64,000 nt of DNA from Clostridium sp. CAG:302 (GCA_000431795.1 FR887372.1:3087-67086), one strand, 5' to 3'; positions 2,431-62,049 are shown, counted from the first letter of the stretch. Notes: generated from the sequence alone by a model not told the origin. Numbers and translations: made by a program.

Positions 2431-3436
2431 TTAATGATTATCCAAATTAATATGCATATTTAAATCTTCTTCTGTAGGTAATTTATCAAGAATATTTTTG
2501 GGAATTATGTTTTTAACTTTAAAAGAAGACACACCGATTGGTACATTTGTAGATTTTAAAGACCAATCAACTGATAATCTATCTTTATCTTTACAAAGTA
2601 ATAATCCTATTGTTGGATTATCGTTTTTCGTTCTCAAAGTTTCATCAATAGCGGTTACATAAAAACCAAGTTGCCCAGTATATTCAGGTTTAAACTTATT
2701 TACCTTGAGTTCTACAACAATATAACATCTTAACTCCAAATGATAGAACAATAAATCTATATAATAATCATTTCCATCAACAGATATTTTATATTGATTT
2801 CCAACAAAACTGAAGCCTTTTCCTAATTCTAGTAATACATCCCTTATCTTATCTAGTAAAGCTTCTTCCAATTCCTTTTCTTTGTAATTTTGATGTAATG
2901 TTATAAAGTCAAATATATATGGATCTTTAAAAGTATTATTTACTAAGTCACTATCATTTGGTGGTAATAATGCACTAAAATTATTATTAGTACCTCCTAT
3001 TCTTTTATGAAAATGGCTTTCAATTTGAATAGAAAGTACACTACGACTCCAACCATTTTTGATAGTATTTTCAGCATATATTTTCCTCAAACTTTTATCT
3101 TTGATTTTTTCAATTAAAAGTATATTGTGCCCCCCAAGGCAATTTGGCAACAAGTTGTTGCCAACTCTCATCATCCTTGTATTCTTCATAAAACAATCGC
3201 ATCGCTCTAATATTTCTTTCCGAAAATCCCTTCATTGAAGGAAAAGTTAATTTAAGTTCAGTAGAAACCTGCTTAGTAAAATTATTCCCATAAACTTTAT
3301 TTTCTGATACGATTTTTCCCAACCTGAAATATAGTTTAATTAAATTACTATTAACTTCCTGTATTGTTTTTATTTGAGTACTTATAATTTCTTTCTTCAT
3401 ATTAGCAATAATCATTTTAAAATCTTTTTCTATCAT
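2431..3436 (-). pseudogene. yhcG: YhcG/DUF1016 PDDEXK-family nuclease-like gene, frameshifted at a G6 homopolymer
   Basis: Two overlapping ORFs, 3110-3463 (N-terminal YhcG_N-like, ...QQLVAKLPWG) and 2431-3189 (C-terminal DUF1016, KDPYIFDFI...IDLLFYH...VVELK...PEYTGQLGFYV), lie in different frames. Removing one G from the GGGGGG tract (top-strand cccccc at 3131-3136) restores a continuous ...AKLPWGHNILLIEK... protein. The RBS GAGGGGG precedes the ATG at 3436. Confidence 0.7.
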
Positions 3437-3449
3437 AACATCCCCCTCA

Positions 3450-3486
3450 TTAAGCATTTTCATATAATGCTATTATTTCTTTCTTA
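3450..3486. repeat. 37-bp direct repeat, copy B
   Basis: Identical to 2220-2256. It encodes the C-terminus (KKEIIALYENA*) of the 95-aa ORF and the ATGAAAATG start context. Confidence 0.9.
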
Positions 3487-3737
3487 TTTAAATTCTTTTC
3501 TAAAGACTTAATATCTTTTATAAATTCATCATGATCTTTAGTTATATCTTCAGTCTTAGTTAATATTACTTTTTCTATATCTGATACTCCATATCTAATT
3601 AAATATAGACAATTTAAATTAACATTTCTAGAGTTATTTACAAGTAATTCTAATAAGTAATTATTTTTACTATTAATTAACTTTTCATAACTAGCATAAG
3701 ATATAAACTTAAATAAATAGTTTAGTTTATCTTCCAA
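3450..3737 (-). CDS. Hypothetical 95-aa protein, first ORF after the T-box leader (TTG start)
   Basis: ORF with RBS GGAAGG 7 nt before a TTG start. It sits immediately downstream of the T-box terminator. No recognisable domain. Confidence 0.4.
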   Translation of the reverse strand: MEDKLNYLFKFISYASYEKLINSKNNYLLELLVNNSRNVNLNCLYLIRYGVSDIEKVILTKTEDITKDHDEFIKDIKSLEKNLNKKEIIALYENA

Positions 3738-4510: not shown

Positions 4511-4700
4511 ATAATCTCCTTTTTTACATTAAATAATATAACATACTTTTATAATTTATACAATATTTTTTATTATTTTTATATTCTTTTTATTTAGTTC
4601 AAGCCTTACTATGTAAGTCTTTCACTATTATATTAAGCCTAATCTTTAGTCTTAATATAATATATCTACATATCTATTATATATAAGCCATATCTATATA

Positions 4701-4731
4701 GCAAAAAGAAAGATATTAGTTATATCTTTCT
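4701..4731 (-). terminator. Rho-independent terminator downstream of mscL (part of repeat family 2)
   Basis: Minus strand shows AGAAAGATAT-loop-ATATCTTTCT (10-bp stem) followed by UUUUUGC. Confidence 0.6.
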
Positions 4732-4771
4732 TCCAATATATTTTACAATAGATATTTACAAAATAAACTTT

Positions 4772-4830
4772 CACAATAGAGACCTTAGGCTCTATTGTGC
4801 CTCTTAAGACTTATCTTAAGACTTAAGAGG
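4772..4830. repeat. Double-hairpin palindromic repeat element, copy 1 of 5
   Basis: cacaatagag-accttagg-ctctattgtg followed by cctcttaag-N13-cttaagagg. The same architecture occurs at 27050-27102, 56891-56942, 59776-59829 and 61977-62030. Confidence 0.8.
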
Positions 4831-17447: not shown

Positions 17448-17535
17448 TATAAGCCTTACTTTGTAAGTCTTATTAGTGTTATTTTGAGCCTTAAGTCTCA
17501 AAATAATATATCTACATATCTATTATATATAAGCA
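17448..17535. repeat. Intergenic palindromic repeat, family 2 (copy B)
   Basis: aagccttactttgtaagtct...gagccttaagtctc...aatatatctacatatctattatatataagc. It shares modules with 4596-4735 and 19420-19490, and in inverted orientation with 41640-41700. Confidence 0.7.
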
Positions 17536-17673
17536 TAATTTATATATTTAAATTCTTTTTAATTAGTAGTTTATTGTAAATATAATAAAAAGCGGATAGC
17601 CACTATGGAGACATACAATGTCTTACCATCTTACAGCATATCCGCTTTCTGTAGATAATATATTACAATCCAA

Positions 17674-19303: not shown

Positions 19304-19419
19304 TTTAAATCACCAATTTAATTATATAGTATTTTATACTATTTTTCAACTATTTTATGCACTTTAATCCTAAGGTATTAAAGTGTTATTATTAGCCTAT
19401 AGTCTAATAATAATGTGTC

Positions 19420-19490
19420 AGTAACATCTATTATATATAAGCCGTAACTATATATTAAAAGAAAGATATTAGTTATACCTTTCTAATTAT
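19420..19490. repeat. Family-2 repeat copy C including a terminator-like hairpin
   Basis: atctattatatataagcc...aaagaaagatattagttatacctttct; the hairpin AGAAAGGUAU/AUAUCUUUCU is followed by a U-rich tract on the minus strand, at the 3' end of the tmk-like gene. Confidence 0.6.
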
Positions 19491-20667: not shown

Positions 20668-21831
20668 TTATTGTGCTATAGGCATTGGTATCTTACCCAT
20701 ATGCTTATATTTTACTAGTTTAACATCACTTAATTCTTTTGAATTATCAAAATCAAAGAAATCAGTAACTTCTTTATTAAGAATAAGTTCTGGAGTACTA
20801 GGATCTAATAACATATCAATTATTTTATTATCAGAATCTAATATTTGATATTCTTTGCTTTTTTTATCTAAGTTCTTCATTTGAAGTAAATTACCTCTTT
20901 CTTCACATAGTAATTCTAACTCACTCTTATCTTTTAAATATTCATAAGTTTCTGCTCTTCTAAGTTGTTCTTTTATACCATCTAACTGATTTACATAAAT
21001 ATGTGGTTCATTGATAGAATAAGATACAAAACCTGGTTCTAAATCTGTTACTTGTGCAATCATTTTTAACAATGTAGCATATTGTGTTACATTAAATGGA
21101 AGTCCTAATGGTACATCACAGCTTCTTTGATGTACTTCTAAGTTTAATGTATCTTTATATATATTCCATTCAGTACTCCAAACACAAGATGGAAGAACTG
21201 CTGTTCTTAAGAACTCATTTTGCCATAAGCTAAAGACTTTTCTTCTAGCAGTAGGACAATTCTTAATAGAGTTAATTAAAGATCTTGCCATATCATATCT
21301 TTTAGTAATATAACCATAAGCAGTACCTATAGTACCAGCATATCCTTTGCCATACCATTTAGCAGCTTTAATATTTTTACCAGGTATTCTACTTTTTGCA
21401 GTCATTAGTTTACCTTCGTCATTATATTTAGGCTCAAAAGAAGTATATTCACCAAACGGATCGCTAAGTGGTACACTAAGTGGGTCCATAACAATTACTT
21501 CCTTATCAGGATTATAATCTTTTGTATTTGGTTCATATATTCTATATATACCATCATCGTCTACTATCCATTCATCCCATATTTTAACATTTCTCTCATG
21601 TAACCATTCCACATCATTAGAACTTGCTTGCCATATCCATAACATTTCTAATATAGCATTTTTATAAAATGTTTGCTTAGTAGATAAAATAGGATATTCA
21701 TCTCTTAAATCAAACTTAAAGTAATGTTCTGGTAATTTAACAGTATTAATACCAGTTCTATTTTCTACTTCTTCCCCTTCTTTTAATATCCTCTTTAATA
21801 ATTTAATATATTCTTCATCAAAATAAGTCAT
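20668..21831 (-). CDS. thyA: Thymidylate synthase (ThyA family), divergent with large insertions
   Basis: Conserved TS blocks are present (NRTGINT, EMLWIWQ..NVKIWDEW, QRSCDVPLGLPFNVTQYATLL, PHIYVNQ, C-terminal KIPMPIAQ). An insertion of about 70 aa follows IWDEW, and one of about 85 aa lies near the C-terminus. The active-site region reads LPSCVWSTEW instead of LPPCH..FQFYV. Confidence 0.75.
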   Translation of the reverse strand: MTYFDEEYIKLLKRILKEGEEVENRTGINTVKLPEHYFKFDLRDEYPILSTKQTFYKNAILEMLWIWQASSNDVEWLHERNVKIWDEWIVDDDGIYRIYEPNTKDYNPDKEVIVMDPLSVPLSDPFGEYTSFEPKYNDEGKLMTAKSRIPGKNIKAAKWYGKGYAGTIGTAYGYITKRYDMARSLINSIKNCPTARRKVFSLWQNEFLRTAVLPSCVWSTEWNIYKDTLNLEVHQRSCDVPLGLPFNVTQYATLLKMIAQVTDLEPGFVSYSINEPHIYVNQLDGIKEQLRRAETYEYLKDKSELELLCEERGNLLQMKNLDKKSKEYQILDSDNKIIDMLLDPSTPELILNKEVTDFFDFDNSKELSDVKLVKYKHMGKIPMPIAQ

Positions 21832-21928
21832 AGTATTTTTACCTCCTGATTATCGCTAAATTAATAATATCATACTATAACTAATAAATCAATATTGTTT
21901 ACTTTTTGTTTACAATGTATTACATAGA

Positions 21929-21955
21929 AAAAACAGACTAAATTAGCCTGTTTAT
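21929..21955. repeat. 27-bp direct repeat / terminator hairpin, copy 1 (flanks the TA module)
   Basis: aaaaacagactaaattagcctgtttat is identical at 22648-22674. It forms a hairpin AACAGaCUAA/UUAGcCUGUU followed by U-rich sequence. Confidence 0.8.
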
Positions 21956-21967
21956 CATATATAATTC

Positions 21968-22258
21968 TTAAAATACTTCACTATGACTTCCAATATTTAC
22001 TAATAAGAGAATTAATTCGTTTTCGTTGTACTTGTATATTAGTAACCAATCAGGATCAATGTGGCACTCAAAGCAATCAATATAGTATTTATCATTAACA
22101 AGTTTATGATTTTTAAATTTTCGCTCCAATTTTTCCATATTTGCTAACTTGTCAACAATATCTAATAATTTATTAATATCTTTTCCTTGCTTTAATGATT
22201 TTTTTAATCCTTTTTTAAATTGGTTAGAATACTGAACATCATATTTATAGTTATTCAT
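21968..22258 (-). CDS. yafQ: Type II toxin, YafQ/RelE family mRNA interferase
   Basis: The 96-aa product carries ...CHIDPDWLLIYKY...NIGSHSEVF, matching E. coli YafQ motifs (HVEPDWILIYK...RTGTHAALF). Confidence 0.8.
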   Translation of the reverse strand: MNNYKYDVQYSNQFKKGLKKSLKQGKDINKLLDIVDKLANMEKLERKFKNHKLVNDKYYIDCFECHIDPDWLLIYKYNENELILLLVNIGSHSEVF

Positions 22259-22541
22259 TATCTGATAGTAATGCTTTCTTTAAATCTTCTCTATTAGTAT
22301 AACGCGGATAATCATTTGGACGTGATATCATTTCTTTTACTTCTTGAACTGCTTTTAACATTTCTTCATTCGGTTTATTGTTTACGATTTCAAATGGTAT
22401 GCCATCTCTTTTTATTACCTGTTTTAAAAATATGTTAATTGCAGTACTCATACTTAAGCCTAGGTTATTTAAAATATCTGTGGCTTGTTTTTTGGTATCA
22501 CTATCAACTTGAATATTTATAGCACTGGTTAAATTTGCCAT
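22251..22541 (-). CDS. dinJ: Type II antitoxin, DinJ/RelB family
   Basis: MANLTSAINIQVDSDTKKQATDILNNLGLSMSTAINIFLKQVIKRDGIPFEI reads as a RelB/DinJ ribbon-helix-helix. It overlaps the toxin start. The RBS GGGAGA precedes the ATG at 22541. Confidence 0.75.
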   Translation of the reverse strand: MANLTSAINIQVDSDTKKQATDILNNLGLSMSTAINIFLKQVIKRDGIPFEIVNNKPNEEMLKAVQEVKEMISRPNDYPRYTNREDLKKALLSDNE

Positions 22542-22647
22542 AGTATCATCTCCCAATATTAATTTTAGCACAATAAGTAGTAAAAGTCAATATACTTACT
22601 ACAATATTACTACATATATTGTATGTGCAAAGTGAATTTTTATACAC

Positions 22648-22674
22648 AAAAACAGACTAAATTAGCCTGTTTAT
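22648..22674. repeat. 27-bp direct repeat / terminator hairpin, copy 2
   Basis: Identical to 21929-21955. It sits at the 3' end of glmS. Confidence 0.8.
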
Positions 22675-24441
22675 TTATTCTACCGTTACAGATTTAGCAA
22701 GGTTTCTAGGTTTATCGATATCACAACCTTTTAATTTAGCTATATTATAAGCAAGTAATTGCATAGGTATTATTGCCATTAATGGATTTAAAACCTCATT
22801 ATAATCATCTAATAATATTTTATACTTAGAAAAATCATCATCTTTAATATTGGTAATAGTTACAATATTTGCTCCACGAGACTCTACTTCTTTTAGATTG
22901 CTAATAGTTTTTTCACTAATTTCTTTATCAGTAACTACTGCGATTACACCAAAGTCTTTATCTATCAAAGATATACTACCATGTTTTAATTCTCCTGCTT
23001 GAAAGGCTTCACTATGTATATAAGATATTTCTTTTAGTTTAAGACTACCTTCCATAGCCAAGTAATAATCTACTAATCTACCTAAATAGAAGATATTCGT
23101 TTTATTAACCATTATTTTAGATATTTCTTCATAATTATATTCATTAATATATTTAGTAAATATATTAGGAAGTAGTTTTAAACTATTAATAGTTTCTTCT
23201 TCAATACTACTACCTTTAATAGCTAAAAATAATAGTACTAATACTTGGGCTAGATATGCTTTAGTGGTAGCTACTGCTACTTCAATACCAGCCTCAGTAT
23301 ATATAACATATTTAGCTTCCCTTGCTATTGAAGATTCATGTCTATTTACTATAGCTAAAGTATCAATATTATTCTCTTTAGCTAATTTTAATGATGCTAA
23401 TGTATCAGCAGTCTCACCTGACTGTGATATAAGTATAACTAAAGTATCTTTATCAAAGAAATTAGTTTGATATCTATATTCTGATGCAAAGTATACATTA
23501 ACTCTAATATTAGCAAATTTTTCAATATAATATTTACCAAGTTGTCCTGCAAAAGAAGCACTACCACAAGCAACAATATCAATATTTTTATATTTCTTTA
23601 TATCAAAGATATCTTTTACTTTGTTATTTTCAGTATATAAATTAAGTAATTTCTTTACAAGTTCTGGTTCTTCATTAATTTCTTTTAACATAAAATGATC
23701 ATAGCCATTCTTACTAATAGTTTCCTTTTCTAAAGGAAATTCTTTTACTGTCTTTTGTATTTCTTTCCCTGCTCTATTATAATACTTAACGTTATCTTTA
23801 GTTAAATATACTACGTCGTAATTATCAAGTACTACATATTTATTAGTTATATGCACAATAGCGGGTATATCACTAGCAAGAACATTTTCATTCTCTCCAA
23901 TGCCTACGATTAAAGGACTATCTTTTCTAATACCAAAGATAATATCTTTATAATCATCATTTATAATATTAAAAGCATAACTACCTTTAAGAATATGAGT
24001 AATTTTATTTAATACTTTAATCATATCTTTCTCTTTATTATAGACATCATCTATAACAGCAGCAGCTACTTCAGTATCAGTACCAGACTTAAATACATAT
24101 CCTTTCTTTGTTAGTTCTTTTTTCAACTCATCATAATTTTCAATAATTCCATTATGTACTAATGTTATTTTACCCTGTCTATGAGGATGAGCATTTATAT
24201 CATTAGCCTCTCCATGAGTAGCCCATCTAGTATGAGATATACCAATATTAGTATCCTCATCATAATTTATATTTTCTTCAAGATTCTTAATAGGGCCTTC
24301 CTTTTTAATTATCTTGATTTCATCATCTTTTATATAAGCAATACCTGCCGAATCATAACCTCTATATTCTAAAGATTTTAAACCTGTAAGTATTTTATTT
24401 AACGCTTTTTTATTTCCTGCATAACCTACGATGCCACACAT
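22675..24441 (-). CDS. glmS: Glutamine--fructose-6-phosphate aminotransferase
   Basis: The 588-aa product starts MCGIVGY and has two SIS domains. Confidence 0.9.
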   Translation of the reverse strand: MCGIVGYAGNKKALNKILTGLKSLEYRGYDSAGIAYIKDDEIKIIKKEGPIKNLEENINYDEDTNIGISHTRWATHGEANDINAHPHRQGKITLVHNGIIENYDELKKELTKKGYVFKSGTDTEVAAAVIDDVYNKEKDMIKVLNKITHILKGSYAFNIINDDYKDIIFGIRKDSPLIVGIGENENVLASDIPAIVHITNKYVVLDNYDVVYLTKDNVKYYNRAGKEIQKTVKEFPLEKETISKNGYDHFMLKEINEEPELVKKLLNLYTENNKVKDIFDIKKYKNIDIVACGSASFAGQLGKYYIEKFANIRVNVYFASEYRYQTNFFDKDTLVILISQSGETADTLASLKLAKENNIDTLAIVNRHESSIAREAKYVIYTEAGIEVAVATTKAYLAQVLVLLFLAIKGSSIEEETINSLKLLPNIFTKYINEYNYEEISKIMVNKTNIFYLGRLVDYYLAMEGSLKLKEISYIHSEAFQAGELKHGSISLIDKDFGVIAVVTDKEISEKTISNLKEVESRGANIVTITNIKDDDFSKYKILLDDYNEVLNPLMAIIPMQLLAYNIAKLKGCDIDKPRNLAKSVTVE

Positions 24442-24464
24442 AATTTTTAACCTCCTCTTATATA

Positions 24465-24600
24465 TGATTATTATCTTGTTACAATTTTGATTTTGTTTTT
24501 TTATAATAATCTAATGAGCATATACACCCAATGTAGTATCCGCCGAAAACTCGATAACTACATACCTCGTTAACTATTTCTAGTCTGGCGCTAATTTATA
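24465..24600 (-). ncRNA. glmS ribozyme (GlcN6P-responsive self-cleaving leader)
   Basis: Minus strand reads AGCGCCAGACUAGAAAUAGUUAACGAGGUAUGUAGUUAUCGAGUUUUCGGCGGAUACUACAUUGGG, matching the glmS ribozyme core (AGCGCCAGAACU...GACGAGGAUGG.GGUUAUCGAAUUUUCGGCGGAUGCC). It is followed by RBS AAGAGGAGG and the glmS ATG. Confidence 0.85.
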
Positions 24601-24691
24601 TTTTCTTCTCCCTTCTATAATATAAACTTTATTACATTATATCAGAATATTAAAAACGTGTAAACATCTGTAGTTACAATTAACTATTGGT

Positions 24692-25354
24692 TTACACATT
24701 TCTATCCTCAAAAAAGTGTAGTAAATTGGGATGTTTAACTAATTTTTTAGTAACATGACTAGGTAAATTATCTACATCAGGATTAAATAAATCCATCATT
24801 TTACCGATACTATTGGGAATATATTTAGTTATTAAAATGTTATATAAAGCATTCCTATATGCTCCTTTAAAACATCTACATAGTTCTTCTTTATTTAATT
24901 CTATTAATTTATTTCTACTAAGGGTAGACTTTTTATAATTATCAAAATCAATTACCTTAATACCATTCTTACCAAATATTATATTACTAAAGTTCATATC
25001 ACCAATTAATATACTATTTTCTGATAATATTATAACATCTCTATATATCTTTATAAAACTATCTATAATATAGTATGTATCTATATTTAGAATATCTTCG
25101 ATAAATGGTTCATAATACTCCATAGTATAACTAGTTATTTGACCTCTTATAGTATTAAATACATAATCATATAATTTAACTAAAGACTCTAAATCTAAAC
25201 TCTTAATAGTATTAAATACCCATTCATCTATAACATGATCTTTAATAGTGGTCATAGTATATTCTTCATATACTTTTTGACATATTTTGTTATCAATATT
25301 TTTTACACTAGCGTGTGTACCCCACATTATACTCTCATCATATAAATTTTTCAT
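24692..25354 (-). CDS. Kinase-like protein (APH/CotS-type fold, atypical motifs)
   Basis: IGDMNFSNIIFGKNGIKVIDFDNY resembles the HGDxxxxN...IDF catalytic/Mg-binding loop of the aminoglycoside-phosphotransferase/CotS spore-kinase family. Confidence 0.4.
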   Translation of the reverse strand: MKNLYDESIMWGTHASVKNIDNKICQKVYEEYTMTTIKDHVIDEWVFNTIKSLDLESLVKLYDYVFNTIRGQITSYTMEYYEPFIEDILNIDTYYIIDSFIKIYRDVIILSENSILIGDMNFSNIIFGKNGIKVIDFDNYKKSTLSRNKLIELNKEELCRCFKGAYRNALYNILITKYIPNSIGKMMDLFNPDVDNLPSHVTKKLVKHPNLLHFFEDRNV

Positions 25355-26147
25355 AAGTCTGCTCCTTATTTTTAATTAAATAATATTCTTCTTTATTTAA
25401 AGGTAGCCCTTTTATTAATCTTTCCTCTAGTGAAAGACTTCTCTTTGTTTTCATTAATATTTTATTAGTATTATTTCTAGTAATAGGAATACCACTATAT
25501 GATATCTTACCTCCAGTAATAGTTAAAAGTTCCAATAAAGGACAACTATTCTTTGAATAATATTCTTTTATTAATCTATTATATTTGCTATTAAAAACAT
25601 TTATAATATATCTAGTAGTAATCTCAGACATATCTAAGAATGTTCTTATTTTATTACAACTAATTATATTAGCCTCTCTTTCTATAGAAAATAAATCATG
25701 ATGTTTTTTATATACACTAGGATATACTTCTATCGCAATATTATTGATCTCAATTAGTTTTCTTTCAAAACTATCTTGAGGTAAAGTATTAGCCTTTTTA
25801 TTTTGAATAACATGTTCTATCTCGTGAAAGATAACTTCTAATACACTTAAACATATAAATAAGTATTTATCAAAATAATCAGAACTAGTATCATATATTC
25901 TTTTATGTATTTTATAGATATCAGAATAATCTTTAATCATTTTGTTTATATTAAACTTTAATATTCTGCTTTCATAAAAGTAAGAGGCTAAGGCTATATT
26001 TTGATAATTATAATCTATATCTTTTACATACTCTATTAGCTTTTCTTCTTTAATTATTATACTTATAATACTATCTATAAAATTATCATCAGGTACTTTT
26101 TTATTAATGGTATAAGTATAGATAATATTCAATAGTTCTTCATACAT
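25338..26147 (-). CDS. HExxH-motif protein, paralog 1 (putative metallopeptidase-like)
   Basis: The 269-aa product has a conserved N-terminus (ELLNIIYTY) and FHEIEHVIQ. It is a paralog of 26163-26960. Confidence 0.45.
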   Translation of the reverse strand: MYEELLNIIYTYTINKKVPDDNFIDSIISIIIKEEKLIEYVKDIDYNYQNIALASYFYESRILKFNINKMIKDYSDIYKIHKRIYDTSSDYFDKYLFICLSVLEVIFHEIEHVIQNKKANTLPQDSFERKLIEINNIAIEVYPSVYKKHHDLFSIEREANIISCNKIRTFLDMSEITTRYIINVFNSKYNRLIKEYYSKNSCPLLELLTITGGKISYSGIPITRNNTNKILMKTKRSLSLEERLIKGLPLNKEEYYLIKNKEQTYEKFI

Positions 26148-26162
26148 AATACTACTCCTATA

Positions 26163-26960
26163 TCATTTACTATTTATTTTAGTTAATTCTTTTTTAGTAA
26201 TAGGTAAACCAAATAATATTCTATTATCAAGAGAAACTTCATTCTTAACCCTTCTTAATAATTTTTTACTATTTTCTTTATTAATTAAAATATCTTCATA
26301 ATATAGATGAATTCCAGAAATATTAATATATTCAAGTAATGGTATATTTTTATGTATATAATAATTGGTAATAAACCAATTATATTCTTTAACAAAAACT
26401 TCATTTATAAATAAAGAAAAAGCACCATCTATTTTTAATATTTCTATTAGTTTACTAGTACTATTTATAATAGCCATTCTTTCCGTAGGAAATAAGTCAT
26501 GCTCTTTTCTATAAAAATCAGGATTAATAGATATTATATCAAGACTATTTTGAATTAAACTTTTTTCAAAAGTATTTCCATTAGTAGTTTCTAATGTCTT
26601 TATTTGTTTTGCATGTTCTAATTCGTGTAATATAGTTAAAATAAACATTAAAGATAAACAAATATATTCTTCTAAATCACTTATATTTATTATTGGTTCA
26701 TAAGAATTTTTATAAAAATTAAAACTTTTTTTAGCATATTCGAGTATATTAGCAACATTAAATCTTAGTGTTTTAGAGGTAAACCCATATGCAGCATTAT
26801 AATCATAATTATAATCTATTTCCTTAATATATTCTCTTAAATTATCTTTATTAATAGCTATATCTAAAACATCCTCTAGAAAATGTTTATCTGGTTCTTT
26901 ATAATTAAAAACATAAGTATAGATAATATTTAATAATTCTGTATACATAACATCCTCCAA
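26163..26960 (-). CDS. HExxH-motif protein, paralog 2
   Basis: The 265-aa product shares TELLNIIYTYVFN and LHELEHAKQ. It is a tandem paralog of the previous gene. Confidence 0.45.
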   Translation of the reverse strand: MEDVMYTELLNIIYTYVFNYKEPDKHFLEDVLDIAINKDNLREYIKEIDYNYDYNAAYGFTSKTLRFNVANILEYAKKSFNFYKNSYEPIINISDLEEYICLSLMFILTILHELEHAKQIKTLETTNGNTFEKSLIQNSLDIISINPDFYRKEHDLFPTERMAIINSTSKLIEILKIDGAFSLFINEVFVKEYNWFITNYYIHKNIPLLEYINISGIHLYYEDILINKENSKKLLRRVKNEVSLDNRILFGLPITKKELTKINSK

Positions 26961-27049
26961 GTATCTAATATACTATCATAAAAGTTCTAAATAGTAAAGA
27001 AAAAACACCTATATAAATGTTAGTTTTTTTATTAATTATATATAATTAT

Positions 27050-27102
27050 CATAACATAGACCCTAGGCTATGTTATGCCTCTTAAGACCTTGGCTTAAGA
27101 GG
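27050..27102. repeat. Double-hairpin repeat element, copy 2 (downstream of rplQ)
   Basis: cataacatag-accctagg-ctatgttatg followed by cctcttaag-accttgg-cttaagagg. Confidence 0.8.
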
Positions 27103-50308: not shown

Positions 50309-51037
50309 TTAGTCAATTATTTTAAGATAAATATTTACATATTTATCACTATACTTTTTGCTTTTCAATAATTCTAAATTATTATATTTATCTTTTAATT
50401 TATCAAAACTATACTCTAATAATAAGATTCCATTATCTAAAAGTAAATCATACTTAGTAACTAGTTCTATTACTTCTTCCATTACTTCCATTTTATAAGG
50501 AGCATCTACTAGTACAATATTAAACTTAATATTATTATTTTTAAAATATAATAAACTATCTCTATAATCTTTACTAACTATAATACTCTTACTATTAATA
50601 CCAAGATTATTAATATTCTTATTTAAATATCTCAATATATCTTTATTATTATCTACAAAATAACATCTACTAGCACCCATAGATAAAGCTTCTATACCAA
50701 GACTACCAGTACCACAAAATAAATCTAATATGATAGAATCATCAATATAATTTTGAATACTAGTAAACATAGATTCCTTTACTCTATTCATCGTGGGTCT
50801 AGTACCTATTATATTATAAGCCAAATAATTCTTTTCCTTATATTCAGAATATTTATATATTTTTTCTTTTAAAGATATTTTTTCATAATCATCTTTACTA
50901 GTATTATATTTATTAATTAATTCTAATAATTCACTATTATTTATAACTATTTCTTTATAATAATCTAATTTTCTAATTAAATTGCTATTTTCAAAAGAAT
51001 CTATTAACTTCTTTGTTTTATCTATAATATTATTCAT
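50309..51037 (-). CDS. rsmD: YlbF-like::RsmD fusion ORF (duplicate copy 1; 16S rRNA m2G966 methyltransferase domain)
   Basis: N-terminus MNNIIDKTKKLIDSFENS... is a paralog of 52321-52617. The C-terminus (LDLFCGTGSLGIEALSMGA...VLVDAPY) is about 95% identical to 51767-52333. A deletion of about 90 nt relative to copy 2 fuses the frames. Confidence 0.6.
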   Translation of the reverse strand: MNNIIDKTKKLIDSFENSNLIRKLDYYKEIVINNSELLELINKYNTSKDDYEKISLKEKIYKYSEYKEKNYLAYNIIGTRPTMNRVKESMFTSIQNYIDDSIILDLFCGTGSLGIEALSMGASRCYFVDNNKDILRYLNKNINNLGINSKSIIVSKDYRDSLLYFKNNNIKFNIVLVDAPYKMEVMEEVIELVTKYDLLLDNGILLLEYSFDKLKDKYNNLELLKSKKYSDKYVNIYLKIID

Positions 51038-51250
51038 TATCTATATTTAAAATCCTTTTCAAGTTCTCTTTTTATATCTCTTTCTTTAATAAATTCTTTT
51101 TTATCATAATTCTTTTTACCTTTACATACTCCTATTTCTACTTTACATCTTCCTTTTACAAAATAGAATCTAAGTGATATTAGTGTATATCCTTCTATTT
51201 CTAATTTGTTTTTTAGTTTTAATATTTCTTTTTTATGAAGTAAATATATT
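51038..51250 (-). pseudogene. Truncated smpB 3' fragment (duplicate remnant)
   Basis: The reverse complement encodes ...EFIKERDIKRELEKDFKY, matching the C-terminus of smpB at 52617-53054. Nucleotide similarity to 52618-52830 ends near 51250. Confidence 0.65.
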
Positions 51251-51305
51251 TTATCATTTTGATGTTAGAACAGATATCATTTAGACAAAGTTTTTTACAC
51301 TCTCC

Positions 51306-51336
51306 TCTATTTAAAAAAATGAACTATTTTTTAGTT
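51306..51336. terminator. Bidirectional terminator hairpin
   Basis: AAATGAACTA-ttttt-TAGTTCATTT, flanked by A-run and T-run. Confidence 0.6.
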
Positions 51337-51339
51337 CAT

Positions 51340-51684
51340 TTATCTTTTCATTGGTTTTGATTCTTCTACATTTATATTTGATTGTATTTCAAATGATTGT
51401 ATTAAAGCATTAAAATATTGTTCTTTAGAATAACCTTTCGGACATTCGACTTTGCCTGATATGATATCTTCATAAATTTTTCTTTTAAATTTTTCTTTTT
51501 CTTCAGGGATACTCATGTATTGCATTTTCATTTTATATAATTCTTCTAATCTAATTAATATTTTTTCTTCTTCGGAATTTAGCTCTTTATAAGATGGGAT
51601 ATCTTTTGTAATCATTGGAATAACTTGATCAAAAGGATTTTTTTCTAATTTTTTTTGTACTTCATCATATGATTTTTTATTCAT
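51340..51684 (-). CDS. Hypothetical protein (114 aa) located between the duplicated segments
   Basis: ORF with no recognisable motif. Confidence 0.45.
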   Translation of the reverse strand: MNKKSYDEVQKKLEKNPFDQVIPMITKDIPSYKELNSEEEKILIRLEELYKMKMQYMSIPEEKEKFKRKIYEDIISGKVECPKGYSKEQYFNALIQSFEIQSNINVEESKPMKR

Positions 51685-51766
51685 ATTTTCCCTCCTTTAT
51701 TGAATTATACTATATTTTTATTAATTTGACAATTACTATAACTATTCAAAAGTTGCACTTGACTTT

Positions 51767-52333
51767 TTAATTAATAATTATTTTAAGATAAATATTTACA
51801 TATTTATCACCATACTTTTTACTTTTAATTAATTCTAAATTATTATATTTATCTTTTAACTTATCAAAACTATACTCTAATAATAAAATTCCTTTATCTA
51901 AAAGTAAATCATACTTAGTAACTAGTTCTATTACTTCTTCCATTACTTCCATTTTATAAGGAGCATCTACTAGTACAATATTAAACTTAATATTATTATT
52001 TTTAAAATATAATAAACTATCTCTATAATCTTTACTAATTATCGTACTCTTACTATTAATATCAAGATTATTAATATTCTTATTTAAATATCTTAATATA
52101 TCTTTATTATTATCTACAAAATAACATCTACTGGCACCCATAGATAAAGCTTCTATACCAAGACTACCAGTACCACAAAATAAATCTAATATGATAGAAT
52201 CATCAATATAATTTTGAATACTAGCAAACATAGATTCCTTTACTCTACTCATCGTAGGCCTAGTAGTTTCTACATTATATCCAAGCAATTCTCTTCCTTT
52301 TAAATAACCACTTATTACTCTCATATATGACAA
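51767..52333 (-). CDS. rsmD: 16S rRNA (guanine966-N2)-methyltransferase RsmD
   Basis: MRVISGYLKGREL...TRPTMSRVKESMF...LDLFCGTGSLGIEA...VLVDAPY. Confidence 0.85.
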   Translation of the reverse strand: MSYMRVISGYLKGRELLGYNVETTRPTMSRVKESMFASIQNYIDDSIILDLFCGTGSLGIEALSMGASRCYFVDNNKDILRYLNKNINNLDINSKSTIISKDYRDSLLYFKNNNIKFNIVLVDAPYKMEVMEEVIELVTKYDLLLDKGILLLEYSFDKLKDKYNNLELIKSKKYGDKYVNIYLKIIIN

Positions 52334-52617
52334 CCTCTTACATTTGTATATTCTTTAAATCTTTTATTAATACCCATAATATAATAAAATAGTTCATTAT
52401 AATACTTCATATATTCTCTATATTCATCATATTTATATATCTTTTCTTTTAAAGATAACTTCTCATAATTATCAGTACTATTATTATATCTTTTTATTAA
52501 ATCTAATAATTCTTTATTACCAATAACTATTCTTTTATAATAATCTAATTTACTAATTAATTCACTACTCTCAAAAGAATCTATTAACTTCTTAGTTTTA
52601 TCTATAACATTATCCAT
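52321..52617 (-). CDS. YlbF/YmcA-family (DUF964)-like small protein
   Basis: The 98-aa product (IDKTKKLIDSFESSELISKLDYYKRIV...) lies next to rsmD, as B. subtilis ylbF lies near ylbH(rsmD). Confidence 0.5.
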   Translation of the reverse strand: MDNVIDKTKKLIDSFESSELISKLDYYKRIVIGNKELLDLIKRYNNSTDNYEKLSLKEKIYKYDEYREYMKYYNELFYYIMGINKRFKEYTNVRGCHI

Positions 52618-53054
52618 TATCTATATTTAAAGTCCTTTTCTAATTCTCTTTGAATATCTCTTTCTTTAATAGATTCTTTTTTATCATAATTCTTTTTACC
52701 CTTACATACTCCTATTTCTACCTTACATCTACCTTTTACAAAGTAAAATCTAAGAGGTATTAAAGTATAACCCTCTATTTCTAGTTTATTTTTTAACTTT
52801 AATATTTCTCTTTTATGAAGTAATAACTTTCTAGTTCTATCTTCTTCATGATTAAATCTATTACCTTCTTCATAAATAGAAATATGTGTATTAAGTAAAT
52901 ATATTTCATCATTTCTAATAATAGCATAACTATCTTTAATATTAACCTTACCTTGTCTTACAGACTTAATCTCAGTACCAGTAAGTACTATACCCGCTTC
53001 ATAAGTATCCTCAATTACATAGTCATATCTTGCTTTTCTATTTAATATCTCCAT
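52617..53054 (-). CDS. smpB: SsrA-binding protein
   Basis: The 145-aa product reads NRKARYDYVIEDTYEAGIVLTGTEIKS... Confidence 0.9.
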   Translation of the reverse strand: MEILNRKARYDYVIEDTYEAGIVLTGTEIKSVRQGKVNIKDSYAIIRNDEIYLLNTHISIYEEGNRFNHEEDRTRKLLLHKREILKLKNKLEIEGYTLIPLRFYFVKGRCKVEIGVCKGKKNYDKKESIKERDIQRELEKDFKYR

Positions 53055-56787: not shown

Positions 56788-56890
56788 AGTTCCTCCTTAC
56801 TAAATAATACTAACTAGTAATAACCTATAGAAGATGTTTTCATAGACAAAAAAAGACTTTAATTTTTTATATTCTATAATATAAATGTTT

Positions 56891-56942
56891 AACAATGAAG
56901 ACCTTAGGATTCATTGTTCCTCTTAAGACTACAAACTTAAGA
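56891..56942. repeat. Double-hairpin repeat element, copy 3
   Basis: aacaatgaa-gaccttagg-attcattgtt followed by cctcttaag-actacaaa-cttaagag. Confidence 0.8.
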
Positions 56943-56993
56943 GATAAAAAAAGATAACCAATTATTATAAATATTTATAATAGTTATCCATTT

Positions 56994-59239: not shown

Positions 59240-59743
59240 TTACTTATCTTTTCTTTTTATTCCTTTTAATAGAGTTCCAGTAATACCATTTTCTATAACA
59301 CCTTTTACTGTACCTCTAGTATCAAATCCAAGTACATCATCTACTTTATCAAAAGCATTTTTAACCTTTTTTACGCCACGATCAGACATAGTTGTACCTG
59401 TTACAGCATCAGTAACTTTAGTAACAAATTTTACTGCTTCAATAGCATTATCAAACTTAATAGTAAAGTTATTTTTAATAGTTTGTATGTATACTTCACT
59501 ATTCTTTTGATGAACTTGTACCTTATTATTATATAACTTAATATCACTAATATTTACTATATTAATTACTTTTTTATTTTCTTCTTTCTTTAAAAGACTT
59601 ACTTTTTTAATTTCTACCTTTTCAATTATTATCTTTTTTGAAGTAAGTGTTAATAATAATTTATCTTCTACATCATTATAATATACTTCTGTAGTTAATA
59701 ATATTACTTCATCTTCCGCTAGTTCATAATTTTCCATATTCAT
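59240..59743 (-). CDS. Hypothetical protein, possible bacterial PH-like domain
   Basis: The 167-aa product starts MNMENYELAEDEVILLTTEVYY... Its promoter/RBS/first 5 codons are duplicated upstream of the ATPase gene. Confidence 0.45.
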   Translation of the reverse strand: MNMENYELAEDEVILLTTEVYYNDVEDKLLLTLTSKKIIIEKVEIKKVSLLKKEENKKVINIVNISDIKLYNNKVQVHQKNSEVYIQTIKNNFTIKFDNAIEAVKFVTKVTDAVTGTTMSDRGVKKVKNAFDKVDDVLGFDTRGTVKGVIENGITGTLLKGIKRKDK

Positions 59744-59847
59744 TCCTCCACATATATTATATCACATAAATACTTCATAACATAGACCTTAGGCTATGTT
59801 ATGCCTCTTAAGACTACAGGCTTAAGAGGACATATACAAAAAGCAAT
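59733..59847. repeat. About 115-bp direct repeat, left copy (contains double-hairpin element copy 4, an extended -10 promoter and RBS/ATG)
   Basis: About 93% identical to 61933-62049. Confidence 0.85.
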
Positions 59848-59868
59848 AAATTTATAAAATATTATCAC

Positions 59869-60822
59869 CTAAAATTTATTCTTAAAATCATTCATAAATT
59901 TCTTATATTTATTAAATTCATTATCCTTATTATTTATTTGAAGAACATATAATATTTTTCCATATAGTATATTTATATATTTTTCTTTTTCTATATCTAT
60001 ATTTCTTTTCTTTAAGTGAGATTCCAAACCAAATTTTCTTATATAATATATTTCCTGTCTTATTTCTTTACGATATTTTGCACTAACCTGTACTTTTTCA
60101 TTAACTACTATTCCAGTTACATTTTGATTAGATGATTTATGTATTATATGTATTTTTTTATTATTTAATTCTAATCCTAACTTATATAACATTTTTCTTA
60201 CTTTAACTATAACTTCTCTTGGATTAAATTCTCCTGAAAATGTCATATCATCTGAATATCTTGTATACGATATATTATTTTCTTCACACCATAACCCTAA
60301 TACTTCATCAAACTCTTTCATTACTAAATTTGAAATATATGCAGATGTAGGAGCACCTTGCATTAGATAATCATCATAAGTACATAAATAAGTTAATATC
60401 ATCCCTACTGATTTAGGAAAATATTCTATTGAAAAACAAGAATTGTATACATCTATAAAAGATATATTTTCAAAAAAATCTTTAATATCTAATTTTAAAA
60501 TTAATTCTTTATTTAAATGTGGAATAGCATTATCTTTCAAATTAATACCCTTATGGTATGCTTTTGCATATTTAGATATTGCTTTATTATCAAGAATTTT
60601 TACTAATATTTGCCTTTGAATATGCTTTAAAAGTGAATTTGGTTCATATATCGTTCTATATTTCCCATTTTTCTTTTTTATTTTATATATTTTATAATTG
60701 TTTTCTATATTATTACTAATAGAATAAATGGTATTCAAATATTTCTTTTTATCTTTACAATTAAACAATTTGAGAGATAGTAAAAATTCATTACATTCTT
60801 CTTTACCTATGTATTTCCACAT
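59869..60822 (-). CDS. Retron-type reverse transcriptase
   Basis: RT motifs 1-7: KKKNGKYRTIYEPNSLLKHIQ, LDIKDFFENI, LMQGAPTSAYISNLVM, YTRYSDDMTFSG (cf. Ec86 YTRYADDLTLS), and the retron-specific NQNVTGIVVN (VTG motif). Likely start MWKYIGKEE, with RBS GGGAGG 8 nt upstream. The 5' 69 nt of the track ORF belong to the upstream ncRNA region. Confidence 0.85.
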   Translation of the reverse strand: MWKYIGKEECNEFLLSLKLFNCKDKKKYLNTIYSISNNIENNYKIYKIKKKNGKYRTIYEPNSLLKHIQRQILVKILDNKAISKYAKAYHKGINLKDNAIPHLNKELILKLDIKDFFENISFIDVYNSCFSIEYFPKSVGMILTYLCTYDDYLMQGAPTSAYISNLVMKEFDEVLGLWCEENNISYTRYSDDMTFSGEFNPREVIVKVRKMLYKLGLELNNKKIHIIHKSSNQNVTGIVVNEKVQVSAKYRKEIRQEIYYIRKFGLESHLKKRNIDIEKEKYINILYGKILYVLQINNKDNEFNKYKKFMNDFKNKF

Positions 60823-61012
60823 CTTTACTACCTCCCAACTATTGCAGTGCTCATGATATTGTAATATGGAGATGAACTCAAAGCGTAGCATAGCGAAGCG
60901 ACTACATGAAATGTAGGTAAGTTCATTGAAGTATTACTATTAAATCATCTTAAATAAATTAGTCCCTTAACGACTCGTTAAAGTAGGAAATAATTCCAAT
61001 CACCACTGCCGA
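60823..61012 (-). ncRNA. Candidate retron msr-msd non-coding RNA
   Basis: A locally GC-enriched, highly structured 190 nt sits between an extended -10 promoter and the RT RBS. a1/a2 inverted repeats are GGCAGUGGUGAU (61011-60999) and AUCAUGAGCACUGC (60857-60844). msr-like hairpins are GGAAuuauUUCC and UUAACGaguCGUUAA. A long msd-like stem AUGAACU...AGUUCAU encloses CUACAUuucAUGUAG. Confidence 0.65.
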
Positions 61013-61033: not shown

Positions 61034-61900
61034 TTATTTTTTATCAAATTCTTCTTCATATTGTTTAAAAAAATTATAGTATACTAATACATTAGATAGT
61101 TCTGTCCATTTTTTTGTTACAACAGGTGTATCATCTAAATCATAAATCTTAGCGTCCATTAGTTTTAATAAAAATGGTGAATGTGTTGATATTATAAATT
61201 GACAATTATAAAATCTAGTAGAGTCTTCAATAAACCTTTTTAACTTCAATTGATTTTCCGCAGATAAACTATTTTCTGGTTCATCTAATATATAAATACT
61301 ATCTTCTTTTATCTCTCTTTCCCAAAACATAAGTGCAGATTCACCATTTGACCATTCAATTATATTATTATTACCTAATCTTTCTCTAACAAATTTAGAC
61401 ATTGATTTTCTTTTACTATCATAACTCATTTTTAATTCATCATAATTATCAAAAGAGTTACCATTATTATTAAATTTATAATCTAAATATTCTTTACTTA
61501 ATCTTTCCTTTTGTCTATTAACATTTGCATTAATAGAACGAACATCTATTAAATAATCAAAAACATCATCACTTGTAATTAATTTTATTTCCATTGGTTG
61601 TTCAAAAGACATTTCATAATCACAATGTTCAACATATAAATCAAAATATGAACCTTTATCTATTGGCGACTTCCTTGATGCATTTAATTTTTGTGAAATC
61701 ATATTTATAAGAGTTGTTTTACCAGAACCATTACCACCATAAAATATTGTTATTTTATCAAAATTTATCTCTTTAAATGATTTCGATGAAAATAAATGAA
61801 GTGGATAATTATTATTAAATATGTTTCTTCTCTCTTCATTAAATTCAATATTATGTTCTTGGATTTCATCTAATAATGTAAATTTTTTTAAATAAACCAT
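61034..61900 (-). CDS. ABC/OLD-like AAA ATPase (Walker A GGNGSGKTT, Walker B ILDEPE, H-loop STHSP); candidate retron effector/accessory protein
   Basis: The 288-aa product has the complete minimal ABC-type ATPase motif set. It sits immediately upstream of the msr-msd promoter, with its own TGGTATAAT promoter and RBS AGGAGGTG. Confidence 0.7.
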   Translation of the reverse strand: MVYLKKFTLLDEIQEHNIEFNEERRNIFNNNYPLHLFSSKSFKEINFDKITIFYGGNGSGKTTLINMISQKLNASRKSPIDKGSYFDLYVEHCDYEMSFEQPMEIKLITSDDVFDYLIDVRSINANVNRQKERLSKEYLDYKFNNNGNSFDNYDELKMSYDSKRKSMSKFVRERLGNNNIIEWSNGESALMFWEREIKEDSIYILDEPENSLSAENQLKLKRFIEDSTRFYNCQFIISTHSPFLLKLMDAKIYDLDDTPVVTKKWTELSNVLVYYNFFKQYEEEFDKK

Positions 61901-61932: not shown

Positions 61933-62049
61933 TCCATATTCATTTCCTGCACATATATTATACCACATAAATACTTCATAACATAGACCTTAGGCTATGG
62001 TATGCCTCTTAAAACTACAGGCTTAAGAGGATATATACAAAAAGCGATA
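61933..62049. repeat. About 115-bp direct repeat, right copy (contains double-hairpin element copy 5 at 61977-62030)
   Basis: It pairs with 59733-59847. It retains a vestigial MNMEN start codon context, now out of frame with the ATPase gene. Confidence 0.85.

Follow-up and report, generated by a model that had tools for sequence, protein, structure and literature searches.

A DinJ/RelB-YafQ-type toxin-antitoxin pair between two copies of a predicted terminator hairpin at the glmS-thyA junction of Clostridium sp. CAG:302

Chromosomal toxin-antitoxin (TA) genes occupy plastic slots between housekeeping genes, where depending on the strain the pair is present, absent or decayed, and where other elements may be found (PMC3184786; PMC7167474). 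A 2020 review likewise describes the insertion loci of TA genes as plastic, with ccd in the folA-apaH region and the relA-mazG slot among the examples, and REP sequences have been reported at a TA site of Escherichia coli (PMC3184786). The DinJ-YafQ pair of E. coli and the HP0892/HP0894 pair of Helicobacter pylori share with the locus described here the order of antitoxin and toxin, the overlap of stop and start codons, the YafQ fold family, the catalytic His/His/Asp/His/Phe set and a RelB/DinJ antitoxin. Our subject is a pair of this type in a 64,000-nucleotide stretch of Clostridium sp. CAG:302 (GCA_000431795.1, FR887372.1:3087-67086), an uncultured AT-rich human-gut bacterium with a genome of ~1.1-1.3 Mb, which public records label as Bacilli or Tenericutes. 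The whole 64-kb stretch is referred to as the window, and positions are counted from its first letter. The pair lies between glmS and thyA, bracketed by two copies of a 27-bp hairpin sequence (positions 21929-22674 with both copies included), and all surrounding genes are on the minus strand. The locus offers a clean natural case of TA gain, loss and exchange, with filled, empty, replaced and decaying alleles of one slot, and some of these allele types coexist inside one abundant human-gut species.

The 27-mer AAAAACAGACTAAATTAGCCTGTTTAT has exactly two exact copies in the window: the upstream copy at 22648-22674 begins with the first base after the glmS stop codon, and the downstream copy at 21929-21955 forms the edge of the cassette on the thyA side. 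No third copy is found in the window with up to 3 mismatches, and the chance expectation for a match of this length is 0 (0 matches in 100 shuffles). The unique cassette enclosed by the copies measures 692 bp. Read on the minus (coding) strand, each copy consists of AAACAGGCTAATTTAGTCTGTTT and a subsequent T-run; both were scored as terminator-like, with 10 pairs in the upstream copy, and RNA folding gives -10.6 kcal/mol for the upstream and -11.7 kcal/mol for the downstream copy (z ~ -4.4). The repeat takes in the whole palindrome, its first base immediately following the glmS stop codon and its last being the fifth T; the stem-loop is 23 nt long and contains a G.U wobble pair in the stem. 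The initial annotation had described identical 27-bp copies on both sides of a YafQ-type toxin and a DinJ/RelB antitoxin between glmS and thyA, each forming a stem-loop with a U-run, and the coordinates, the folds and the protein family matches given below agree with it on all of these points. It had also raised the possibility that the repeats belong to a wider family. The hairpin lies outside the multi-copy families of the window (D3, D4, D13 and D18) and is not similar in sequence to the tandem-hairpin element found at 4771, 27049, 56890, 59775 and 61976; the likeness to the multi-copy families is a loose one of layout, comprising an outer stem, a G.T pair and a CTAA/TTAG inner stem. Nor does the hairpin correspond to a known RNA family in an Rfam scan of the window, in which only the glmS ribozyme, T-box and tRNA were matched.

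Relatives were obtained by a glmS scan of GTDB species representatives and annotated by tblastn and listing of open reading frames (ORFs), their junctions were read and nucleotide identities computed. L022 (glmS 90.8% identical to the window) carries the TA pair with both 27-bp copies identical to those of the window. L023 (90.3% to the window, 95.7% to L022) is empty, with one hairpin copy, and two further contigs of its type, L116 and L117, are also empty with one hairpin. L023 represents the exact empty site of L022, the filled site being equal to the empty site plus the cassette plus one extra 27-bp copy. L024 (90.9%) is empty and keeps one diverged orthologous hairpin, AAACAGACTAATTTGGTCTGTTT, which is fully paired, and L035 (84.9%) is empty with an unrelated terminator. 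Other cargo occupies the slot in L021 (93.7%), which has an ORF of 286 aa with an HExxH motif and a different terminator, and in L032 (77.8%), which has an HExxH-motif ORF and a Fic protein (PF02661); neither is accompanied by a flanking repeat. The TA pair fills the slot in the window, L022, L101, L112 and L118, and the slot is empty in L023, L024, L035 and L114-L117. With conserved core genes on both sides and varying content, the glmS-thyA junction appears to be a hotspot whose cargo is interchangeable. The 27-bp repeat would be the native terminator of glmS, since exactly one hairpin copy is kept at the empty sites of two strains of the window species and of the sister species, and the earlier description of the repeat as a duplicated glmS terminator gains support from these sole copies. 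The upstream copy would then end transcription of glmS, and the downstream copy that of the TA pair ahead of the thyA promoter.

Within the window species, 20 contigs from human-gut metagenomes, up to 1.27 Mb long and including GCA_041328705.1, were fetched by an identical glmS or toxin protein. All 20 display the order glmS, RelB, YafQ, thyA with both hairpin copies; the hairpin on the glmS side carries one single-nucleotide polymorphism (SNP) in the loop in 18 of them, and the copies there match at 26 of 27 positions. Scanning metagenome contigs for empty junctions, with a pattern of the glmS end, the hairpin and six Ts, yielded 4 contigs. With a glmS identity of 99.0-99.2%, L114 and L115 are strains of the window species and are empty, with glmS, a single hairpin and thyA in succession; thyA is 99.1% identical to that of the window in L115 and unalignable in L114. 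Set against the 20 filled contigs, they establish the TA pair as a presence/absence polymorphism inside the window species. Empty and filled alleles of the species are distinguished by a patch 4-12 bp past the T-run, consisting of a 9-bp indel and SNPs, and their other differences at the junction amount to ordinary strain variation, save one SNP at +166. The patch of the empty alleles resembles the sequence of L022, L023 and L024 and is absent from every filled allele of the window species. The empty alleles therefore represent an older haplotype and not a fresh deletion of the present filled allele, and, carrying a diagnostic indel patch, they are not assemblies collapsed at the repeat. In the window strain the 3' end of glmS and the hairpin with T in the loop match the empty haplotype, not the majority filled haplotype, which indicates recombination near the upstream hairpin.

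The next-closest homologs of the toxin (80% identical) are found in L101, L102, L103, L112 and L113, again between glmS and thyA, in contigs whose glmS is 96.8-98.9% identical to that of the empty L035 and ~84% identical to that of the window. Synonymous divergence (dS) between the window and L101 reaches 0.71 for relB and ~1.9 for yafQ, against 0.76 for glmS and 0.76 for thyA. With a divergence equal to or above that of its flanks, the cassette has been at the junction since about the split of these clades, and is as old as the clade rather than a recent arrival. The ratio of non-synonymous to synonymous divergence (dN/dS) of the pair in the same comparison, ~0.06-0.11, speaks for long-term purifying selection on both genes. 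Alleles of the L101 type have one intact hairpin, located downstream of yafQ and bearing a compensatory C..G to T..A change in the stem. The string that follows glmS in L101 forms no hairpin on folding, and no intact terminator is present on that side. This string, AAAATAGCATTTTTTT, was considered as a decayed hairpin copy, which is plausible by eye; it is too short and does not fold, and is not used as evidence. All inspected contigs with toxin homologs of 98-99% and 80% identity have them at the same glmS-thyA junction, and homologs of 75-78% identity reside in another genomic context, near lgt and a holin-like gene, with different, unduplicated terminators. The duplication is therefore not a property of this TA family. 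The proposal that the pair was acquired by insertion at the terminator survives as far as an optional insert beside the glmS terminator is concerned; the dS values against L101, the single intact hairpin of the L101-type alleles, the recent exchange with L022 described below, the want of inverted terminal repeats and of a recombinase gene in the cassette and the other cargo of the slot speak against a simple recent insertion. By their patch, moreover, the empty alleles of the window species are not simple reversals of the filled one. Related genomes, to which the initial annotation had pointed for a comparison of the junction, supply the empty sites with a single hairpin, and also, in L101, L102, L103, L112 and L113, the TA pair beside one intact terminator, an arrangement named there as counting against the insertion.

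Comparison of the window with L022 reveals 8 synonymous differences over 103 sites in the TA genes and 267 over 801 sites in glmS, thyA, folA and tmk (Fisher p = 1e-8), corresponding to dS of 0.076-0.089 in the TA genes and 0.42-0.52 in the other four. Nucleotide identity is 96% in the noncoding stretch between glmS and the antitoxin, 90% in thyA and 84% in folA. The block of low divergence stops at the downstream hairpin; on the far side L022 resembles its empty sister L023 and differs from the window. Because the dS of the pair falls far under that of the flanks and the block ends at the downstream hairpin, the cassette has crossed between the two species recently, as a block. On the thyA side the exchange junction lies in the 27-bp hairpin or no more than ~10 bp past the T-run, that is, within ~33 bp comprising the hairpin and CTATG. 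Another strain of the L022 species, L118 (2218-2842 of the contig), has a toxin with the change H66Y and a 55-bp deletion of the C-terminus that includes the catalytic His and Phe; the toxin ORF reads through the hairpin, and the upstream hairpin copy is mutated. The variant protein is indexed on 12 contigs. Inactivating mutations hit only the toxin in this one lineage, where the TA pair is decaying in the manner usual for TA genes on chromosomes. Together with the low dN/dS against L101, this lends indirect support to a toxin that would arrest growth and be neutralised by the antitoxin. Concerted evolution need not be invoked for the hairpin copies, and in L118 they diverge.

We assign a probability of roughly 0.7 to the reading that an intact TA pair sits in a recombination-driven intergenic hotspot, that the hairpin copies act as terminators and short homology arms, and that the duplication is a recombination scar and no target-site duplication of a transposase. 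Gain, loss and replacement would proceed by homologous or homology-facilitated recombination of incoming DNA, with glmS and possibly also the upstream hairpin as the left arm, and the downstream hairpin with CTATG (~33 bp) as a short right arm. The hairpins would insulate glmS, the TA operon and thyA from each other's transcription, and as homology arms would allow re-insertion into, or deletion to, a site with a single hairpin; the duplicated terminator is thus suggested to be both a transcriptional insulator and a short portable homology arm. The double-hairpin allele might have originated in two steps. The pair would first have sat between the glmS stop codon and its terminator, as in L101, and an allele of this type (glmS, TA, terminator) would then have been re-inserted into an empty allele (glmS, terminator) by joining at the T-run, producing the order glmS, hairpin, TA, hairpin, thyA. 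Equally, a circular copy could have recombined at the hairpin by a single crossover. The history of the cassette is discordant with that of its flanks and the cargo of the slot is variable, which are the two marks of a hotspot, or 'islet'. Among the inspected contigs the same element with its own duplication was not found at other loci, and the cassette has neither terminal inverted repeats nor a transposase: the two TA genes are the sole ORFs of 50 aa or longer in the 719 bp, with no recombinase or transposase gene inside the cassette, and no convincing inverted terminal repeats occur at its ends beyond the hairpins (the best candidate spans 17 nt at 76% in AT-rich DNA). An origin from a plasmid or phage was also considered and set aside, as blastn of the cassette against PLSDB and INPHARED gave weak partial matches only, with 72-76% identity over 12-17% of the query. 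Lacking inverted terminal repeats, an extra ORF and close plasmid or phage relatives, the cassette would not be self-mobile.

Several points weigh against the recombination reading. The patch past the T-run separates filled from empty alleles, and frequent switching between the two states at the repeats is accordingly not demonstrated. On the glmS side the junction of the exchange between the window and L022 cannot be placed, the sites in the final 200 bp of the gene pointing in different directions. An apparent window-like tract in L022 (glmS nt 1581-1668) consists mostly of changes specific to L023 and does not fix this junction. The event behind the duplication is a reconstruction.

The age of the TA pair at the junction would also follow if the pair had always been there, the hairpin had been duplicated later, giving glmS its own terminator, and the empty sites were deletions between the repeats. 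This account agrees with the L101-type alleles, which carry the downstream hairpin only, and the one copy present in L023, L114 and L115 is what a deletion between the 27-bp direct repeats would produce. It overlaps the two-step version of the recombination reading, and we hold it to be rather unlikely on three grounds: outgroups with glmS beside thyA have other cargo or none, the ancestral-type patch of the empty alleles is missing from all filled alleles of the window species, and L035, which is 96.8% identical in glmS to the filled L101, has an unrelated terminator and is not a deletion product. Insertion in one step by an integrase or transposase, with staggered cuts around the terminator palindrome and gap repair leading to a 27-bp target-site duplication, is what the wording of the initial annotation implies, and has in its favour that the filled allele equals, to the base, the empty allele plus the cassette and an extra 27-bp copy, that the duplication covers the entire palindrome, starting directly behind the stop codon and reaching the fifth T, and that two more cassettes of the window have flanking duplications of local sequence. 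Target-site duplications of transposons are usually far shorter than 27 bp, however, and the three flanking repeats of the window, at 27, 82 and 106 nt, imply no fixed stagger. Coupled with the absence of inverted terminal repeats and an enzyme gene from the cassette, with the L101 lineage having the same cassette and junction in the absence of an intact upstream copy, and with other cargo of the same slot being free of flanking repeats, this makes a one-step insertion improbable.

The intergenic hairpins of the window invite the further thought of a dedicated cassette system, integron-like or based on single-strand hairpin recombination, which would recognise the hairpin in trans and have the TA, yhcG and retron cassettes as its cargo. 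Mismatch hairpins of one family do occur at intergenic borders of cassettes in the window, frequently as tandem pairs; directly beside one such pair is a two-gene cassette that some strains have and others lack, and the layout of the TA hairpin, with its outer stem, G.T pair and CTAA/TTAG inner stem, is similar. The TA hairpin is nonetheless no member of this family by sequence, having 2 copies in the window within 3 mismatches, and it has a G.U wobble where the family has a C.T mismatch and the L024 ortholog is fully paired. Exchanged tracts have no fixed ends, as in the window species filled alleles depart from empty ones past the hairpin, and a close toxin homolog elsewhere has different, unduplicated terminators. 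No integrase was identified in the window, which is only partly annotated, and on balance we regard such a system as very unlikely. Hardly more probable, and offered as speculation, is the idea that terminator and other intergenic hairpins of the lineage are entry points of an unrecognised mode of cassette capture that duplicates tens of base pairs of the target (27 for TA, 82 for yhcG, 106 for the retron), driven perhaps by a hairpin-directed recombinase acting in trans or by template switching during replication at palindromes; if true, it would be a general route for loading TA and defence cassettes between essential genes in small-genome bacteria. Finally, AT-rich genomes hold many similar terminators, and the two hairpins might in principle be independent convergent terminators, or else an artefact of assembly. 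The identity of the copies at 27 of 27 positions with 0 chance matches in 100 shuffles, the recurrence of the arrangement in more than 20 independent assemblies, and the diagnostic indel of the empty alleles, which speaks against repeat collapse, leave this explanation a negligible share.

The region bears the features of an intact type II DinJ/RelB-YafQ operon with its own putative promoter and operator. The toxin gene (21968-22258, minus strand, 96 aa) encodes a YafQ-type member of the RelE superfamily that matches PF15738 (YafQ_toxin) with 94.7 bits at a cut-off of 30 and TIGR02385 (RelE/StbE) with 70.2 bits at a cut-off of 27.9; on the narrow YafQ model TIGR00053 it scores 64 bits, under the cut-off of 87.25. 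Among PDB entries it matches the structures determined for HP0892 and for E. coli YafQ. In a BLASTP alignment with E. coli YafQ identity is 36%, and residues H51, H66, D70, H92 and F96 of the toxin align with H50, H63, D67, H87 and F91, which we take to be the catalytic residues of the E. coli protein; the motifs at the catalytic positions align with HP0892 as well. The toxin is a predicted ribosome-dependent mRNA endonuclease. The antitoxin gene lies directly upstream (22251-22541, minus strand), and the toxin start overlaps its stop by 8 nt, as in translationally coupled genes. Counted from its ATG the RelB/DinJ-family antitoxin has 96 aa, and the length of 97 given in the initial annotation corresponds to 97 codons including the stop. 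It matches PF04221 with 63.6 bits, TIGR02384 with 80.3 bits (cut-off 45.65) and the DinJ chains 9lew_A, 4q2u_A and 4ml0_A.

In the order of transcription the locus comprises the glmS ribozyme, glmS, a 27-bp copy, a promoter-like site, the antitoxin, the toxin, the other 27-bp copy, the thyA promoter region, thyA, folA, tmk and fmt. The ribozyme leader 5' of glmS (24457-24603, minus strand) matches Rfam RF00234 with 56.6 bits against a gathering score of 37, and glmS itself (22675-24441, minus strand; glutamine--fructose-6-phosphate transaminase) matches TIGR01135 with 707.7 bits and has SIS and GATase domains. The promoter-like site of the TA pair (22562-22590, minus strand) was found by a consensus scan with 10 of 12 matches and consists of TTGACT, 17 nt and TAAAAT with a TG extension; it is kept in L022 and L101. 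An operator-like inverted repeat, I16 (22588-22621), with 14-nt arms that are 79% complementary, lies over and upstream of the -35 hexamer and may be a DinJ/RelB binding site. It is kept in L022 along with the promoter-like site, both being matches at the level of consensus. The thyA promoter and leader region (21832-21928, minus strand) contains a promoter-like TTGATT, 17 nt and TATTAT at 21892-21864 and adjoins the single hairpin in the empty alleles. The gene thyA (20668-21831, minus strand; PF00303, 231 bits) is the first of the thyA-folA-tmk group, followed by folA (PF00186) and tmk (PF02223). At 387 aa its product is unusually long, with an internal insertion and a C-terminal extension of ~60-90 aa relative to the Pfam and TIGRFAM models, and both are found across the clade, with 387-389 aa in all relatives. 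Just upstream of glmS, at 24692-26960, the window has members of a lineage-specific family of HExxH-motif paralogs of ~260-290 aa without a Pfam match, together with a 220-aa partner. Paralogs of this family are also found in the glmS-thyA slot itself, in L021 (7809-8669) and in L032 (7851-9602), where the pairing with the Fic/DOC protein hints at a further module of toxin-like or defensive function.

Bounding by direct repeats recurs among the cassettes of this genome, the repeat units being of different kinds and lengths. One case is a PDDEXK nuclease gene of the yhcG type, which is split into two ORFs (3110-3463, DUF1016_N; 2431-3189, YhcG_C), is probably frameshifted, and is situated between pheS and a T-box leader with a 95-aa ORF. 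It is flanked by an 82-nt direct repeat (2195-2276 and 3425-3506; 80% identical, 37 nt exact) in which the 3' end of that 95-aa ORF, upstream of the nuclease gene, is copied together with the ribosome-binding site preceding pheS. The retron-like defence pair of an AAA/ABC-type ATPase (61034-61900, 288 aa) and a reverse transcriptase (59869-60891, RVT_1, 340 aa) is flanked by 106-nt copies at 59743 and 61944, which are members of a five-copy family of tandem hairpins plus promoter. The lengths of 27, 82 and 106 nt and the differing kinds of repeat favour recombination scars over a single enzyme with a fixed stagger. The initial annotation had seen the same pattern of direct repeats at the TA, yhcG and retron cassettes; the likeness stands as a description, and the yhcG and retron repeats are not duplicated local terminators.

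The two-hairpin element of the five-copy family occupies 4771-4830, 27049-27102, 56890-56963, 59775-59848 and 61976-62049. On the minus strand it reads CCTCTTAAG..CTTAAGAGG followed by CATAACATAG-CCTAAGG-TCTATGTTATG, with an internal mismatch in each hairpin; the stem arms covary between copies, and the bases proximal to the loop are conserved. Two copies are trailed by a promoter-like TATAAT with a ribosome-binding site, and no Rfam family matches the element. It is found at cassette borders, for instance 3' of the rplQ terminator. A two-gene cassette (184 aa and 514-519 aa, no Pfam match) is located at 4782-7494 of L003 and at the same place in L017 and L020, which corresponds to ~27049 in the window. 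It directly follows the tandem-hairpin element downstream of rplQ, is present in some strains of the window species only, and carries at its far end a pair of hairpins with this layout, oppositely oriented. Another conserved intergenic element, D13/D18 (4626-4706, 17449-17552 and 19360-19460), consists of one or two mismatch hairpins followed by ATATCTACATATCTATTATATATAAGC and on the minus strand reads like a promoter followed by a structured leader; one copy lies between tmk and fmt, and another at the far end of the L003 cassette. The window also contains, at 50315-52713, a tandem duplication of a gene segment of ~1.5 kb (D1/D2, 96% and 87% identical, spacing 1461-1580 bp), from which the paralogous ORFs 50309-51037 and 51767-52617 derive.

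The locus introduces no new kind of system or mechanism, and its use lies in the study of how TA and defence genes turn over in uncultured gut bacteria with small genomes. Integrons commonly hold TA cassettes that bring their own promoters, and the present cassette resembles them in being small, promoter-bearing and bounded by imperfect palindromes. Its hairpin of 23 nt, however, is far shorter than an integron attC, the palindrome is the terminator of a neighbouring gene, and the slot holds a single cassette; no integron integrase or attI was identified in the window, which was only partly screened for tyrosine recombinases. Natural transformation with short homology, or homology-facilitated illegitimate recombination, as known from Streptococcus and Acinetobacter, combines a long homologous anchor with a very short second homology. 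By analogy, a process of this kind would explain both the thyA-side end within ~33 bp of identity and the flanking duplications of 27, 82 and 106 nt. In comparison with E. coli YafQ, the toxin of the window is 36% identical, falls under the TIGR00053 cut-off and belongs to an uncultured small-genome gut host. Our literature search brought up no earlier description of a TA insert enclosed by a duplicated terminator. The pattern of presence, absence, decay and replacement is the same as in the published TA slots (PMC3184786; PMC7167474). Where REP sequences and no duplicated terminator were reported at the E. coli slot (PMC3184786), that of the window has an exact duplication of the terminator of the upstream gene, and it further differs from the E. 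coli slot in permitting a base-by-base comparison of empty with filled alleles and a measurement of exchange across species by dS.

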